A DNA stretch of 64,000 bases from a virus: positions 36,023 to 100,022 of the IMG/VR virus record IMGVR_UViG_3300033149_004116, one strand, 5' to 3'. The notes below the pieces were generated by a model. That model was not told the DNA's origin. It saw only the letters and a program-made list of their open reading frames with translations, and searched no databases. Both the position numbers and the translations under genes were made by a program. Positions 26,543 through 32,278 of this stretch are shown here, in pieces (the stretch's first letter is position 1; each line of letters opens with the position of its first letter).

Positions 26543-27734
26543 TACGATCCCTCAAATATTCGTCAAATTGTTTAACAATAATGTTTATATCATATACTTC
26601 TCTCGCTCTTTTTACTCCTCTCTCGGACATTGCCTTCTTCTCGTCTGGATTTTCTATCAACCATTTCATTTGTTCATAAGCATGATCAACATCGGCTAAT
26701 GCTCTATCAACTCCCGCGCTTCCAGTTTCAAACGTTTCAACCTTGACGGGGAGTCCACAAGTCCAATTCCCAAGTATTTCTTTCGAAGTTGTATATGTCG
26801 TTGCAACGTTAGCACAGCCACACGAGAGAGATTCGGTTAAAGTTAGCCCCCACCCCTCCCCGCCAGTTAAGTAACAAAATATATCTATACAGTTATAGAC
26901 CTCCGCTAATGTTTCCTCAGAAACTCCATACATAAAATTTGCCATCATATCGGGCGAGGGGAATATAACATCTTTCCCTTCCTGCAAGCCAAATCTCTTG
27001 ACTATAAAAGATAAATCCCATCCCTCCTTGTCAACTTTATCCATCCATAGAAGAAGAACAGTATTTGGATAATCTTTATGAAGTTTGACGAATGATTTGA
27101 TAGTTCTGGGGATTTTCTTTCGAGTTTGGTTTCGATCCACCCGTCCAATTACAATTTTGGATGGGGGTATTCCAAGTTTCTGTCTCATTTCTCCAATAGT
27201 TTGCTCATCCAAAGGTTTAAAGATATTTGTCTTGACTCCATGAGGAATTTGATCGGTTTGTATTCCCTCCGCTTTAATCAAGTCCGCGCCGTATTTTGAA
27301 ATACACACCTTATAATCCACTCTTTTCAATATCTCTTTTATTTGATCTGTTACTGGATATCCATCGATAGGAAACCAATACAACCAAGGGACGGGAATCT
27401 CTGTTTTATATAAATAAGAGATCATCCAGAAATCAGCAAGCGTTATCAGAACATCTGGATTTTCCTTTGGAAGCCAATATTTGATTGCTCTCTCCCCGAA
27501 TCTGTCTCCATAAATATTTGGAAGAATCCTATAACCCAAGACATCCTTATGAAAGGAGGCAACCATTTCCTGACCAAAGGATTGCCATCCTATGTGAGCA
27601 ACATCATGTCCAACTTTATGAAGATATGTATCCAAATTTCTTAATGCAGTTCCAAAGCCAGATATGGTGTGTGATGATTGGTGTCCAAGAAGGGGATTCC
27701 TTACTTAGATATCACCCATCGTTAATATCTTCAT
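26535..27734 (-). CDS. GT4 glycosyltransferase in two exons (27711-27734 and 26535-27677) separated by a 33-nt BHB intron; 388 aa after splicing
   Basis: AAGGTGA SD and ATG at 27734 give MKILTMGD. Removing 27678-27710 joins it in frame to SSHTISGFGTALRNLDTYLHKVGHDV, restoring a typical GT4 N-terminus. RNQTRK and GEGWGL..E motifs downstream. Confidence 0.88.
27678..27710 (-). other. Archaeal bulge-helix-bulge micro-intron in an mRNA
   Basis: Minus strand GATG-GGTG-AT^A-TCTAAG..CTTGGA-CACC-AA^T-CATC: outer helix GATG/CATC, 4-bp central helix GGTG/CACC, 3-nt bulges ATA and AAT, inner helix TCTAAG/CTTGGA. Contains an in-frame TAA. Confidence 0.85.
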
Positions 27735-28522
27735 TTTTTCACCTTATCCCTCCTATATTGTCTTCTATTCCAATATCCCTTTTCTTTTAATTTCATATAT
27801 TTTTTCCACTTCCTCTCTCCATATATTGTAGCATCATTATATATCCAATCTAGTAGTTTTCTTGCTTCTCTAGTTGCATATTTTATTTTATAAACACCTA
27901 TTTGTTTGTGACACGTTTTCAATCTTAATCCCAACAATTTGTTTATCATCGCTGAAATCCACGTTAAAAATTCTTTAGTTCCTATAATTTCTACTATCGT
28001 CCTATTTTGAACGTCATAAACTCCACCATCCCCATCAAAAACTCCTCGAAAGAAGTGCTTAAACATATTATTTGGAACGTCAATAATTCCTTGAGTTGAT
28101 GTTTTTCTCGGATGGACTCCTAGTTTTTCTAAGTCCTTATACATTTTAACGCTACCAATAGACAAGCGATAATAGAAATCTCCTAGTGTGTTTTTTGATT
28201 GTTTTGCATATTTTATCGGATGTTCTGAATCCATAGCCTTCCTTATTTTTTCTAAAATGTCTTTGTCAACAATATTTATTTGAATTTTTCGTCCCTCAAC
28301 TAAACATCCATCTGCTACTATAAATCCCAAACAATAGTAAGTGGACTCGGAAGACTTTTTAAAGAAGTCTTCATTTATAGCATATTTTCTATTATGGTGT
28401 GTCATTAACATACTATTTGTTTTAGTCTTATATAAATGTTTCCTTATCCACGTTTCTTGTTGAGTCAAAACGTTTCGAGAAGAGTTATCTTGCGAACTAT
28501 CACCAAGGGTTAAAATCTTCAT
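27731..28522 (-). mobile_element. Two-motif LAGLIDADG homing endonuclease, free-standing, beginning with a copy of the GT exon 1
   Basis: YCLGFIVADG and FFRGVFDGDG motifs; N-terminus MKILTLGDSSQ versus GT MKILTMGDSSH. Confidence 0.9.
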
Positions 28523-28575
28523 GTATTTTCTTATAATTAAAAGGAGAACTTATATAAAAAGATATTGGTTTTTAA

Positions 28576-28791
28576 TTATTTAATTTGATAATCTCTGCTC
28601 CATAATCTCTTTATTATGCCCTCCCTCAAACAAATATTTAAATGTTTTCTAACTGTTGATCTGTTTCTCCCGCTCTCCTCAACAACTCTATTAATATTGA
28701 TTTTTCCGCTTGGATAACTATTTTTAAATGCTAATATTAAAATTCTTCTAGTTTCATCTTTTAGTTTCATTATTTTTTTTCGATTGCTCAT
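28576..28791 (-). CDS. Winged-HTH protein, possibly the frameshifted C-terminus of the JAB protein
   Basis: INRVVEESGRNRSTVRKHL..EGII. Confidence 0.6.
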   Translation of the reverse strand: MSNRKKIMKLKDETRRILILAFKNSYPSGKININRVVEESGRNRSTVRKHLNICLREGIIKRLWSRDYQIK

Positions 28792-29296
28792 CCAACTCTA
28801 TTTTGCCTAAAAAATTAACAATGGGGATTCCTAAATAAAATTTTTCACCAACAAAATGAGGAGTAAAAATTGCCTCTTCTGGTTGTTTTAAATAAACAAT
28901 CTCTCTATTTTGAGAGTTTCTAGCAGCTATAAAAGTATGTTGTCCCATTTTATGATGAATTACCCATATCCACAAATCGGAGCAGGCATCTATATCTCTC
29001 ACAGAGGGAATGGTTCCATTTGGATGGCTATGAAATTTTCCTTGTTTATATAAACCAATACTGGAAGCATAAAGATTACACCAATATCCGCCCCAAGAAT
29101 GTTCTCTATACGTTCTATATTTTTTATTTCCCTCTTCTACATTTGGAACAGGGAAAATGTCTCTAATAATTGTATCTTCAAGATATTTATATCCTAAAAG
29201 ATATCCTCCCACCTCTTCTGGATGTTTCGCATCACACAAAGTTTCAAGTTTTAGTTTTGCCTTAGAATCTAGTAATATTTTTTCCATAAACATCAT
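28754..29296 (-). CDS. JAB/MPN+ (JAMM) metalloprotease
   Basis: EVGGYLLG..FHSHPNGTIPSVRD is a complete E..HxHx6SxxD motif. Confidence 0.85.
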   Translation of the reverse strand: MMFMEKILLDSKAKLKLETLCDAKHPEEVGGYLLGYKYLEDTIIRDIFPVPNVEEGNKKYRTYREHSWGGYWCNLYASSIGLYKQGKFHSHPNGTIPSVRDIDACSDLWIWVIHHKMGQHTFIAARNSQNREIVYLKQPEEAIFTPHFVGEKFYLGIPIVNFLGKIELDEQSKKNNETKR

Positions 29297-29319
29297 TTCT
29301 TCAAACCAGTATAAAAATC

Positions 29320-29904
29320 TTATGATATGTCTTCAATCGGAGTTTCAATATAAATTTTATAAAAGTTCTTGGGGGGAGCAAAATTGTGTTCTCTCGCCTC
29401 AGTTGCAATATGCCGAGCTATAGCGGGCATAGTTATCCTTTTATCGCTCCAATTTTCTATTCCTACTTGATCTAGAGCGTGTTGTAATGCTCGCATAATT
29501 CGTTCTTTGGGCATAGGAGGATATTGAGGTCTAACCTCCTTTCTAGGAAGTCTGGGAAGTTTTGGAAGATCGATCTTCTCTTTCGCAAATATCTGATGTT
29601 TATAATTTTTTAGAACTACTCCTTCCCTTCGATGGCGACGACACCAAGTTAACGATTTCTGAATTCGTTCATTTAATTCTTCTAATGATGCTGGTATAAA
29701 TCTATCAATAACTCTGACTATAGGTATTTTAAATTGATATGCTCTTTGATATACATACTCGTATGGTAAAAATCTTTCAGCATTTACGTCATATATGTCG
29801 AAAATTATCCAATGAATATTTGAAATTGCTGATTCTATTCTAGTTGGCGATCCGCTTCTTTTTTTAATGTGATAACTTCCACATTTAGGACATTTTATTG
29901 TCAT
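29320..29904 (-). CDS. ATP-dependent RNA ligase, C-terminal half of a split gene
   Basis: IFDIYD (motif IIIa), REGVVLK (IV) and FAKEK (V); begins with CPKC. Confidence 0.75.
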   Translation of the reverse strand: MTIKCPKCGSYHIKKRSGSPTRIESAISNIHWIIFDIYDVNAERFLPYEYVYQRAYQFKIPIVRVIDRFIPASLEELNERIQKSLTWCRRHRREGVVLKNYKHQIFAKEKIDLPKLPRLPRKEVRPQYPPMPKERIMRALQHALDQVGIENWSDKRITMPAIARHIATEAREHNFAPPKNFYKIYIETPIEDIS

Positions 29905-30464
29905 TTTTTCTTAATTCTCCATTTTCATATCTTTTTATCCATTGACAATTCATACATAATACTTGATATCCCTCTGGATAATTATTATCTTGTAACCAGC
30001 GATAAAAATGTCTTCCACCTTTTCTATTTTTTCCAAATAACTCTCTTCTATGATCTCCACCGCCTCCCTTGATATGATCTATTGAAAGAGTTCTTATATC
30101 GCTCATACCACATTGACGACAAACAGGTGTTGAGAGATGGGAATAATGAGATAAAACTTCATATTTTATTTTCTGACTCCATATCTTACTTCTTTCGTTG
30201 CTTGCCTTTATTAGTTTTATTCTGTTTTTCTCATAATACTCCTTTTGTTTTTGTCTTATTTTATCTTTATTCTCTTCTCTATATTTTTTATTATATATCC
30301 TCCTCCTCTCTCTGTTCTTGATATAATATTCATGTTTATATTTTTTTATACATTCTTTACACTCAGTTCGTCTATTCTTTTTTTCCCCTTTCTTTTCTTT
30401 CATAAAAATCTGAAACGGGTTTAATTTGATGACATATTCGACATTCGCGGAGTTCCATAATCAT
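29885..30464 (-). mobile_element. HNH homing endonuclease inserted in the RNA ligase gene; frameshift at a G4A7 run near 30378-30388
   Basis: N-part MIMELRECRICHQIKPVSDFY (from 30464) continues in the +1 frame as RTECKEC..CRQCG..LSIDHI..YQVLCMNCQ; own TATA box near 30485. Confidence 0.8.
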
Positions 30465-30502
30465 TATAGGTTCACTTCTAAAATATAAAGGTTTTGTTCA
30501 AC

Positions 30503-30838
30503 TCACCATTTATATCTACAATCTTTACATATGAAACGACCTTTCTTAAGCAACTCGCCATATAAAATGAATTTATTATCATAATTTAATTCATTCTTTA
30601 ATAATTCAATTGCTCTGGAATATTCTGGGGTTGATCTCAATCGAGCCCGAATGCTCTTATCAGCTTCTTTCATTCTCCTACTAGAGATTTGGGGGATTTC
30701 GTCCTCATCAAACCAAATTGATGTATTTTCTCCGTCGCGCTTAACAGTAAAAAGAACAACCTTTCCTAATAATTCTCTCCCCTCATTTCTCAATCTTTTA
30801 ACTGGTTCTAAATCGGGATATTTTTTCCAAATAGACAT
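30503..30838 (-). CDS. ATP-dependent RNA ligase, N-terminal half of a split gene
   Basis: KYP, TVKRDGEN (motif I KxDG), SSRR (Ia) and ILYGEL (III); ends with FICKDCRYKW. Confidence 0.78.
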   Translation of the reverse strand: MSIWKKYPDLEPVKRLRNEGRELLGKVVLFTVKRDGENTSIWFDEDEIPQISSRRMKEADKSIRARLRSTPEYSRAIELLKNELNYDNKFILYGELLKKGRFICKDCRYKW

Positions 30839-31047
30839 TACATTTTCCACCAATCATTTGGAATATATATTTTAATTCCTCGCTTTTGCATAAATTCTAG
30901 TCGAATATAAAATGCCACATTTATCAAAGCAAGGTCTATTTCTTTAATCGCAAATCCTCTCCCTCTAATTTCAGAATTAAAAAATTTTATTAATTTTTCT
31001 GTGAGGAGGGCAACATTATCTTCTTTCATTTTTTTCACACACCTCAT
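30838..31047 (-). CDS. Hypothetical protein
   Basis: In-operon small ORF. Confidence 0.4.
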   Translation of the reverse strand: MRCVKKMKEDNVALLTEKLIKFFNSEIRGRGFAIKEIDLALINVAFYIRLEFMQKRGIKIYIPNDWWKM

Positions 31048-31297
31048 TCTGTTGCTTGAACTTCGCTCTCTGTTTGATTATTTCGGCAAAAAATGTGTTG
31101 ATATAATCCATCGCCGTCTCAAGATAGTGGTTTGGAACTTCTAATGGTTCCTCCTCACGATAGAGTCCCATCTTTTTTCTCCTTTCTACGTCGGTTTTCA
31201 AGATTTTCAAATAACCTTCCCAGCTTTCCACTTTCTTTATAAGTTCTAGGAGCGCATCAAATTTAACAATCACACTCGAATTATCATAAGTTTGCAA
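31016..31297 (-). CDS. Hypothetical protein
   Basis: The open frame extends to about 31345 without an ATG. Confidence 0.45.
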   Translation of the reverse strand: MQTYDNSSVIVKFDALLELIKKVESWEGYLKILKTDVERRKKMGLYREEEPLEVPNHYLETAMDYINTFFAEIIKQRAKFKQQNEVCEKNERR

Positions 31298-31345
31298 TCC
31301 ATACTTATCTTCAAGTTCTTCAAACGTTCTTTCTTTTTTACGTAT

Positions 31346-32278
31346 TCATCTCTCCTCCTCGACGACGCCCAAGACAGCATAAAGCTTCTCTTTCCATCTC
31401 AGTAATCGATCAAGTGATTTTCTCGTCAACCAAATCCAATCCATATTGAGAATCTCAACCAGTTCGGGCATGAGTTTCTTGATGGCTTCAAGACTGCGCT
31501 CAAGTTCAATTTTCTTCTTCATGGTCTTCTCAAGGAGAGGCGTGTCACTCCAATCTATACAATCCCAGTTTCGTGCTTTCTCCCATATCGGCTTAAGCTT
31601 CTCCCTTAACGCATCTATGTCGGCGCAAATTTCGCTTATTAGCTCATCAAAAGAATCATGGCTCTTCTGCTGACAGGGCTTTTCTGCATCTGGAACAACA
31701 ATCTTAGGCTTTCCTTTCTTTACTTTCGTTACTTCAAGTTCCACGTTGTATCGCTTTGGATTCATCCTAACATACACATTCTTTTCGATCTCCTCCTCGG
31801 CGGCTCCCAATATTCTCTTTAATTCGTCTAGGTCTTTCCCAGAACAACATAGATATTTCATCCCTGCCGTTTCACAAATCTCTACCCTTTCTGAAAACCA
31901 AGTCTTGACGGCTTCGAGGCGACTTTTGGCATTATAGGCGTCTAAAACTTCTTTATCATCAGCTCTGAGCCATTTGTTGAACCCATCCCACATCTCTTCC
32001 TTTCCACGCGTCCTTTTGAAGCATTCCCCGCACATCGTCATCGATGTCTCTGGATCGATGAACCCACCACATATCGGGCATCGTATCCGCAGGTCGAGAT
32101 CGTTTAAGGGGTTGTGGCTCTCCCGCTGCTTCGATAATAGATTGGGAGAATCTCTATCAGTGGCATGTTGGGTCGCGCGCGTTTCCGTCCTTACACTCGC
32201 GAGCTTTGACGACCCTATGCCTACAGCAGTTTCGGGTGCCGATATCCTCCCTTTCTTATTCTTTTCTTTCTCTTCCAT
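31346..32278 (-). CDS. Hypothetical protein with Zn ribbon and coiled coil
   Basis: CPICGG..CGEC; visibly more GC-rich than its neighbours. Confidence 0.5.
   Translation of the reverse strand: MEEKEKNKKGRISAPETAVGIGSSKLASVRTETRATQHATDRDSPNLLSKQRESHNPLNDLDLRIRCPICGGFIDPETSMTMCGECFKRTRGKEEMWDGFNKWLRADDKEVLDAYNAKSRLEAVKTWFSERVEICETAGMKYLCCSGKDLDELKRILGAAEEEIEKNVYVRMNPKRYNVELEVTKVKKGKPKIVVPDAEKPCQQKSHDSFDELISEICADIDALREKLKPIWEKARNWDCIDWSDTPLLEKTMKKKIELERSLEAIKKLMPELVEILNMDWIWLTRKSLDRLLRWKEKLYAVLGVVEEER

Follow-up and report, generated by a model that had tools for sequence, protein, structure and literature searches.

A viral RNA ligase gene split by an HNH endonuclease gene, with half of a putative zinc ribbon on each fragment

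Selfish endonuclease genes usually spare the host genes they invade by hiding in self-splicing introns or inteins. Here we describe an RNA ligase gene cut in two by a free-standing HNH endonuclease gene, located in a 64,000-nucleotide stretch of viral DNA (the window) that corresponds to bases 36023-100022 of a 100-kb IMG/VR virus record (IMGVR_UViG_3300033149_004116). The split itself is confirmed by the layout of the locus. Beyond this, we consider it probable that a mobile cassette split the gene for an ATP-dependent RNA ligase and that the two halves of the enzyme are re-joined in trans by a zinc ribbon to which each half contributes one knuckle. An original prediction, made from the letters of the window alone, had proposed such a shared zinc ion, and the sequence comparisons and structural models presented below support this interpretation. 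The main new result is the recurrence, as judged from sequence, of the same cysteine-bearing ends in other metagenomic ligases.

The locus comprises three successive minus-strand open reading frames (ORFs), which encode an N-terminal ligase fragment, the HNH protein, and a C-terminal ligase fragment. The N fragment (30503-30838) is 111 amino acids long, runs from an ATG at 30838 to a stop codon at 30503-30505, and ends in YGELLKKG+RFICKDCRYKW. Its host-derived part, M1-G100 (30539-30838), carries motif I (KRDG, with the lysine nucleophile), motif Ia, and motif III (YGEL), and is followed by a tail composed of RFICKDCRYKW and the TGA stop (30503-30538), which holds the first CxxC knuckle of the split ribbon. 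The C fragment (29320-29904; 194 amino acids) opens with MTIKCPKCGSYHIKKRSG+SPTRIE, where MTIKCPKCGSYHIKKRSG is a head (29851-29904) that supplies the second CxxC knuckle together with the strand after it; the host-derived part, S19-S194 plus the stop (29320-29850), carries motifs IIIa (FDIYD), IV (REGVVLK), and V (FAKEK) as well as a C-terminal helical domain. Between G100 and S19, respectively the last and first residues of the two fragments with homology to other ligases, lie 688 nucleotides, only 38-99 of which are non-coding. The two ligase ORFs are in different frames, a spacer (30465-30502) follows the N fragment, and the 3' end of the HNH ORF overlaps the start of the C fragment by 20 nucleotides. 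The Pfam profile PF09414 (RNA_ligase) aligns with the N fragment over profile positions 3-74 (E 1e-3, 19.7 bits) and with the C fragment over positions 86-159 (E 2e-7, 31.7 bits); the latter match is above the 27-bit cut-off and the former falls below it, as would be expected of a fragment with only 40% of a domain. In a PF09414 search of the virus's own genome, the ligase scored 33.1 bits. Motifs I, III, IIIa, IV, and V form a complete set across the two fragments, and all lie in invariant alignment columns. The original prediction had assigned motifs I, Ia, and III to the N half and motifs IIIa, IV, and V to the C half, with an HNH gene separating them; the ORFs, Pfam matches, and alignments bear out the former assignment, and a PHROG 2255 match of the middle ORF the latter.

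By sequence and predicted structure, the split protein belongs to a family of ATP-dependent RNA ligases (PF09414, with an Rnl2/Rnl3/Rnl5-like nucleotidyltransferase domain). The family profile matches solved Rnl3 and Naegleria RNA ligase sequences (E 1e-9 to 1e-7). For the fold, an unsplit relative, P0009, served as proxy for the window protein, whose halves were modelled as a complex only; the AlphaFold2 model of P0009 (predicted local distance difference test score, pLDDT, 91) matches Naegleria RNA ligase, T4 Rnl2, and archaeal Rnl3 in Foldseek with E values of 8e-9 to 5e-7. The nucleotidyltransferase domain with motifs I, Ia, III, IIIa, IV, and V is thus common to this family and to Rnl3 (Pab1020, MthRnl), Rnl5 (Naegleria), and T4 Rnl2, whereas the present family is viral, is about 280 amino acids in length, has its own C-terminal helical domain, and shows 12-18% identity to the solved ligases.

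When 1.8 billion representative proteins were queried with the C fragment, 149 relatives emerged, most of which have 270-320 amino acids and align with the C fragment from about residue 16-19 onward; a second database added 56 more, mostly of 276-294 amino acids. The C fragment is 55-63% identical to unsplit homologues, and the N part is 67% identical to one of them, P0173. At the position of the break, the closest unsplit relatives (55-67% identical) read YGELLKxVSPTRIE with no insertion, in agreement with the smooth join, YGELLKKG-SPTRIE, that had been predicted to result from omitting the ribbon. Across the break, the chain is uninterrupted in more than 150 unsplit relatives. What the window has in excess at the break is the 11-residue tail and the 18-residue head. 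Both are absent from the unsplit homologues, which answers the earlier question of whether such proteins contain the ribbon: a CxxC pair or ribbon insert at the window's own site is found in none of the 159 relatives of at least 240 amino acids. Four loci from related IMG/VR viruses, identified with an alignment query (L005-L008), also carry the ligase gene unsplit. In the unsplit gene of L005 (L005:4700-5555), none of the codons ATG, GTG, and TTG stands where the start is expected, and the frame continues open upstream through IKLIWVKYPDLEP; translation may begin at an unusual start codon. No close protein relative of the locus was found in IMG/VR and no ligase relative in GTDB genomes, and a blastn search of the locus against a phage collection returned no match.

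The cysteine-bearing ends are not peculiar to the window. At the window's own site, P0152 (130 amino acids; 58% identical to the window ligase) ends in YGELLKIG+KFKCKDCGHQW-stop and hence bears the same tail. In a more distant ligase, P0131 (193 amino acids), the chain ends just past motif IV, at a second site, as EGMVIKTDPTK+KCRCKDCGNEW-stop, and P0209, a member of the same 90% cluster, comes from a second source. Conversely, four C-terminal fragments start at this second site, just before motif V, with a head of the window type, C(P/E)KCGSxx(I/V): to the MTIKCPKCGS of the window correspond MQCEKCGS in P0204 and P0036, MTCPKCGS in P0208 (from a 108-kb contig), and CCPKCGS in P0149. In the contig of P0149 (L009), the one head-bearing second-site contig that was read, a gene for a 186-residue HNH protein, 30% identical to that of the window (E 3e-10), lies directly upstream of the head-bearing ligase fragment and overlaps it as in the window. 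Because tails, heads, and the L009 HNH gene recur in this manner, the same arrangement of tail and stop, HNH gene, and methionine and head is present at two sites of the ligase family.

A single-chain counterpart of the presumed ribbon also exists. The unsplit P0009 (338 amino acids) carries YKCLSC-8 residues-CERCGSEKV in one chain at the second site, modelled by AlphaFold2 as short strands with a pLDDT of about 80-86, and P0196 has a partial ribbon at the same site. In the window, 8 residues likewise stand between the cysteine pairs (RYKW from the tail and MTIK from the head), and it is by virtue of this equal spacing that the HNH gene can be said to sit exactly in the inter-knuckle loop. The knuckles of the window occur in the contexts F-x-CKDC-x-Y-x-W (tail) and CPKCGS-xx-I (head), and the head weakly matches the Pfam families Zn_ribbon_3 (E 0.03) and Zn_ribbon_Com (E 0.03-0.04). 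In the ORFs of this genome, a CxxC occurs in 0.8% of 11-residue and 1.4% of 18-residue segments, which puts the chance of both together at about 1e-4. The claim that tail and head together form one CxxC..CxxC ribbon pattern has accordingly held up, and the comparative evidence, namely the recurrent tail and head at two sites and the single-chain ribbon, lends added support to the zinc clasp that was suggested from it.

Several further observations pertain to these inserts. When the tail pattern was searched as degenerate DNA, there were 0 matches in the viral_contigs set and 0 in the metagenome_contigs set. An alignment by MAFFT of the tail to the SPTRIE..HW segment of unsplit proteins was judged to be forced, the tail being kept as CKDC..W in other split copies, and the idea of a 4-5-codon target duplication (LKKG / IKK..SG) was rejected, since the residues past the head knuckle correspond to the strand behind the knuckle in the other heads. 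A third site, located between the DE(V/M) helix and W.DK, is occupied by a CxxC..CxxC insert in the unsplit P0196 and P0201, and these inserts may be scars of a further insertion site. Finally, P0019 (323 amino acids) is an in-frame fusion of a second-site ligase fragment (FIAFKEKIDLPK) with a different nuclease, one whose C-terminal region is Vsr/DUF559-like, and the loop between motifs IV and V is therefore a target of more than one endonuclease family.

The main HNH ORF (29885-30403) encodes 172 amino acids from its own ATG at 30403. It matches PHROG 2255 (E 2e-6) and contains CRQCG..SIDHI..LCMNCQWIK, an HNH motif with CxxC pairs; a Pfam search with this ORF gave no match at E values up to 0.1. 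The alignment with PHROG 2255 begins only at profile position 47, and an N-terminal zinc-finger piece of the HNH protein (CRICHQIKPVSDFY) is encoded separately by a 30-codon ORF (30372-30464, ATG at 30464) that is out of frame with the main one. The pattern of this piece resembles the intact, in-frame N terminus of the homologous L009 HNH protein (MEFTCARCDKKKNIDEFF), and BLAST searches with the short piece returned nothing significant. The two frames meet in an A7 run (30378-30384), where one A fewer would fuse them; the frame break could be a real frameshift or decay, an assembly error, or a site at which slippage during transcription or translation restricts expression. A TATA-like sequence, TTTATATT, lies in the spacer (30482-30489) about 20 nucleotides upstream of the ATG at 30464. 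Of the promoter that had been ascribed to the HNH gene, the box is thus present at a fitting place, while its function as a promoter stays putative.

Relatives of this HNH protein are found in IMG/VR viruses, where all 27 are free-standing. HNH genes with the C-terminal motif YQTLCMNCQWIKR are common and free-standing in many viral contigs (L015-L031). In one of these, L026, the ORF immediately upstream of the HNH gene has at its end a small zinc ribbon that is complete and similar in style (CLRCNHKW...CPRCGTPYW).

Several observations bear on whether the ribbon halves and the HNH gene move as a unit. The core of P0152 is 81% identical to the unsplit P0197 and only 58% identical to the window ligase, which in turn is 67% identical to the unsplit P0173. 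In a quick maximum-likelihood tree, calculated for the C-terminal region from 101 rows and 93 columns and with many forks unresolved, the head-bearing copies are scattered over at least four positions among unsplit relatives; P0197, for example, is the sister of P0036, and P0158 that of P0204. Since the split copies each have closer unsplit relatives, the ribbon halves and the HNH gene appear to travel together, and a joint gain of both on several occasions would be a simpler account of the sequence relationships than many precise joint losses. The identities and the quick tree thereby reveal, if indirectly, a patchy presence at a fixed site among close relatives, and we infer from this pattern that the HNH endonuclease mobilises the cassette.

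Association of the two ligase fragments was assessed by modelling them as a complex from the two sequences, their alignments, and a zinc ion in three runs. The ipSAE scores were 0.90, 0.89, and 0.90, and that of the best control was 0.00; the mark applied to this score is passed by 58 of 80 solved complexes and by 2 of 110 mismatched pairs. At least 90% of contacts are shared between the runs, and the partner pLDDT is 79 or higher. The firmest modelled contacts pair the motif III strand (N fragment 91-96) with the motif IIIa strand (C fragment 32-38), and the interface also takes in tail residues 99-107 and 109-111 and head residues 3, 5-10, and 12-17. The heterodimer prediction that had been proposed as a check therefore came out as anticipated, with the halves bound and both ends at the interface, a result that may reflect likeness to single-chain ligases. 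We take the model to support binding of the halves, without showing it.

Taken together, these data are compatible with the following scenario. A cassette would have entered the ligase gene in the loop between motifs III and IIIa, bringing with it, in order, a first zinc knuckle and stop codon, a free-standing HNH gene, and a start codon and second zinc knuckle. The ligase would then be translated as two polypeptides, of 111 and 194 amino acids, which could re-form one nucleotidyltransferase fold non-covalently through pairing of the motif III and IIIa strands. One zinc ion would be bound at the break by C104 and C107 from the tail and C5 and C8 from the head, and the ribbon so formed in trans, equivalent to the single-chain ribbon of P0009, would clamp the cut loop.

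Other explanations of the locus must be weighed against this one. The insert might be removed as RNA, through a bulge-helix-bulge (BHB) or a group I or II intron, or as protein, through a split intein, to yield a continuous ligase. Homing endonucleases often reside in introns and inteins, and a glycosyltransferase gene in the same virus, about 2 kb from the ligase locus and beside a LAGLIDADG gene (27731-28522), carries a canonical 33-nucleotide BHB mini-intron (minus strand; exon 1 end 27711, exon 2 start 27677; outer helix 4 bp, central 4 bp, inner 6 bp). A purpose-written BHB scanner recovered this mini-intron as a positive control with a score of 14. Among 28,800 junction pairs of the ligase, however, the best score with a full 4-bp central helix was 13, a mid-range value for chance matches (scores from 200 random region pairs had a mode of 12 and ran from 8 to 19), and none of the junction pairs restored the frame in a sensible join. 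An Rfam search of 27000-32000 at E values up to 1 yielded no family match, group I and II introns included, and the small non-coding share of the insert leaves no room for a group I core. A split intein is likewise at odds with ends of 29 residues in total that contain no intein blocks, nucleophiles, or terminal His-Asn: the tail starts with Arg in place of Cys or Ser, and the head ends in Ser-Gly before Ser. Given that there are no intein halves or splicing blocks, the ligase halves cannot be covalently ligated. The ends are also conserved as protein, with the stop and the methionine at fixed places. The absence of BHB, intein, or group I features noted in the original prediction has therefore withstood closer scrutiny, and removal of the insert by either route is highly improbable. 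A different alternative is that the HNH insertion killed the gene, leaving fragments that are decaying or have no ligase function. The frame break in the HNH gene indicates that the insertion is not brand new, and the virus has a separate ATP-dependent DNA ligase (L002), both of which would accord with a dead gene; nonetheless, both ligase halves are free of stops and frameshifts, the invariant alignment columns are preserved in full (23 in A3 for the N fragment and 50 in A2 for the C fragment, among them the motif I lysine and motifs III, IIIa, IV, and V), the terminal branch of the C fragment is not lengthened (0.49 against a family-tree median of 0.58), and same-ended split copies persist in several lineages. 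The halves show no decay, and we view an inactivated gene as a doubtful explanation with little to recommend it.

A third alternative accepts that the halves work together and holds that their assembly depends on the core fold alone, the cysteine ends being incidental, whether as leftover cassette sequence, as recognition or regulatory DNA of the endonuclease, or as a nucleic-acid-binding add-on. The modelled interface is indeed mostly core strand pairing (such as N 91-96 with C 32-38), the tails of the split Aeh1 reductase discussed below are dispensable for heterodimer formation (PMC3045599), and the third-site CxxC..CxxC inserts of P0196 and P0201 occur without a known split, so that ribbons may serve another role. 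Incidental sequence would not be expected, however, to keep the knuckle pattern at two insertion sites and among ligase cores sharing no more than 36-58% identity, to place the stop right behind a conserved W and the methionine 1-4 residues before the first cysteine (12 in P0149 being the exception), or to match the spacing of the single-chain ribbon, and we therefore judge this alternative unlikely, though it is one to be taken seriously. Re-joining of the halves by a shared zinc ribbon, which remains the explanation we prefer, has its own points of weakness. Zinc binding, the ribbon's part in assembly, and ligase activity are all things that we infer from sequence and models. The complex model is known by its scores and residue contacts, and its high scores may reflect likeness to solved single-chain ligases, the two halves being halves of one fold; with a core interface as large as that modelled (about 250 contacts) and by analogy with known split enzymes, the halves might assemble without the ribbon. 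The invariance of CKDC could reflect a constraint at the DNA level rather than on the protein. Only two copies are known at the window's own site (the window and P0152), and tail and head occur together on one read contig only in the window, where the HNH gene is out of frame near its start and the cassette may no longer be mobile. Lastly, cysteine ends were found on none of the neighbours of HNH relatives in the 18 best-matching IMG/VR loci; as these relatives are free-standing and have no flanking cysteine ends, the ribbon is not general to the HNH family.

With regard to the genomic setting, the window encodes a large terminase and a family B DNA polymerase, and these genes, along with the BHB mini-intron beside a LAGLIDADG gene, make a tailed virus of an archaeon the most likely source. 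The DNA ligase mentioned above lies outside the window (L002:1177-2151, minus strand; G000:C1:12284-13258); it has 324 amino acids, motifs KYNGTR, DGE, EGIVLK, and LKVK, and an OB domain, and it is distinct from the split RNA ligase. It also accounts for the second PF09414 match in the genome, which had been considered as a candidate spare RNA ligase paralogue and was rejected on these grounds. No other genes of the virus with similar cysteine ends were found in the 100-kb record. Directly downstream of the C fragment, a prokaryotic-type JAB/MPN-domain protein (PF14464, E 5e-7) is encoded at 28754-29296 on the minus strand, followed by a small 71-residue ORF without a family match (28576-28791, minus strand); this neighbourhood is not kept around the unsplit ligase genes in L005 and L007.

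A broader reading, to which we give a little less than an even chance, is that the window exemplifies a class of homing-endonuclease cassettes that carry their own antidote in the form of a zinc ribbon with the endonuclease gene in its inter-knuckle loop. Upon landing in frame, such an element would turn the host protein into two chains, each with one knuckle, that re-join around a zinc ion, and it could thus enter catalytic loops of useful genes without an intron or intein. Later deletion of the endonuclease gene would leave a small single-chain zinc ribbon as a scar, and the ribbon does appear to stay behind as a single chain after loss of the endonuclease gene; if so, some small zinc-ribbon inserts in enzymes would be scars of past invasions. 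Adjacent "fragment" genes in viral metagenomes could then be flagged as working split enzymes instead of pseudogenes, and the pair of ends, about 29 residues in all, would represent a natural tag with which split proteins could be reassembled in a metal-dependent way. A zinc ribbon split by an endonuclease gene would also constitute a third and very compact solution to the problem of sparing the host gene, beside hiding in introns or inteins and tails of the kind found in phage Aeh1.

To our knowledge, nrdA/mobE of phage Aeh1 is the only case in which element-borne peptide tails have been shown to restore a fragmented enzyme, and it is the closest precedent for the ligase. The nrdA-a/mobE/nrdA-b arrangement is reportedly the subject of work by Friedrich from 2007. 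In this phage, the ribonucleotide reductase gene is interrupted by that of a free-standing, HNH-family endonuclease (Crona et al. 2011, PMC3045599). The tails arrived with the endonuclease and are essential for activity, and as oppositely charged peptides they serve higher-order assembly, the NrdA-a/NrdA-b heterodimer forming without them; the authors predicted that there might be tail-like sequences elsewhere (PMC3045599). As in Aeh1, a conserved enzyme gene is divided at the ligase locus into two genes of like orientation by a free-standing gene for an HNH-type endonuclease, there is no RNA or protein splicing, and unsplit homologues do not have the unique C- and N-terminal tails: the ligase ORFs lie in the original order around the endonuclease gene, intron and intein are both missing, and the extra ends are confined to split copies. 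The locus differs from Aeh1 in that its ends are the two halves of a putative Cys4 zinc ribbon, which recur in one pattern at two sites of the family and have a single-chain counterpart, and also in its host, an archaeal-type virus, and its target, an RNA ligase.

Other systems resemble the locus in part. The 'fractured genes' described in 2009 (PMC2677866) use split inteins. They show the same gene order of N part, endonuclease gene, and C part, and the kind of Vsr-like nuclease reported there is the one fused to the second-site ligase fragment in P0019; the ligase ends, by contrast, measure just 11 and 18 residues and contain no splicing blocks. Intermolecular Zn(Cys)4 sites are known from the Rad50 zinc hook and the CD4/CD8-Lck zinc clasp (e.g. 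PMC5093744, PMC12198760), in which two cysteines per chain share one zinc ion, as is proposed for the ligase; these, however, are long-standing sites of cellular proteins; no mobile gene has cut a ribbon in two there, and no fragmented enzyme is rescued. The ShiLan domain is an out-of-frame HNH insertion hidden in a mycobacteriophage methylase, and zinc fingers are described only within the HNH protein, with no ribbon in the host frame (Arsenault et al. 2025, PMC11855218). As with the ligase, an HNH element has entered a conserved phage enzyme gene, intron and intein features are absent, and the insert is tolerated; yet in ShiLan the host frame remains open through the insert and gives a single polypeptide, whereas the ligase is truly split by a stop and a new start. 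Full-text searches of the literature did not turn up any description of a zinc ribbon that a homing endonuclease has split. As far as computation goes, sequence comparison and modelling support a view of the ligase as another gene in pieces that would be rescued by element-derived ends, distinguished from its nearest precedent by a putative zinc-ribbon clasp.

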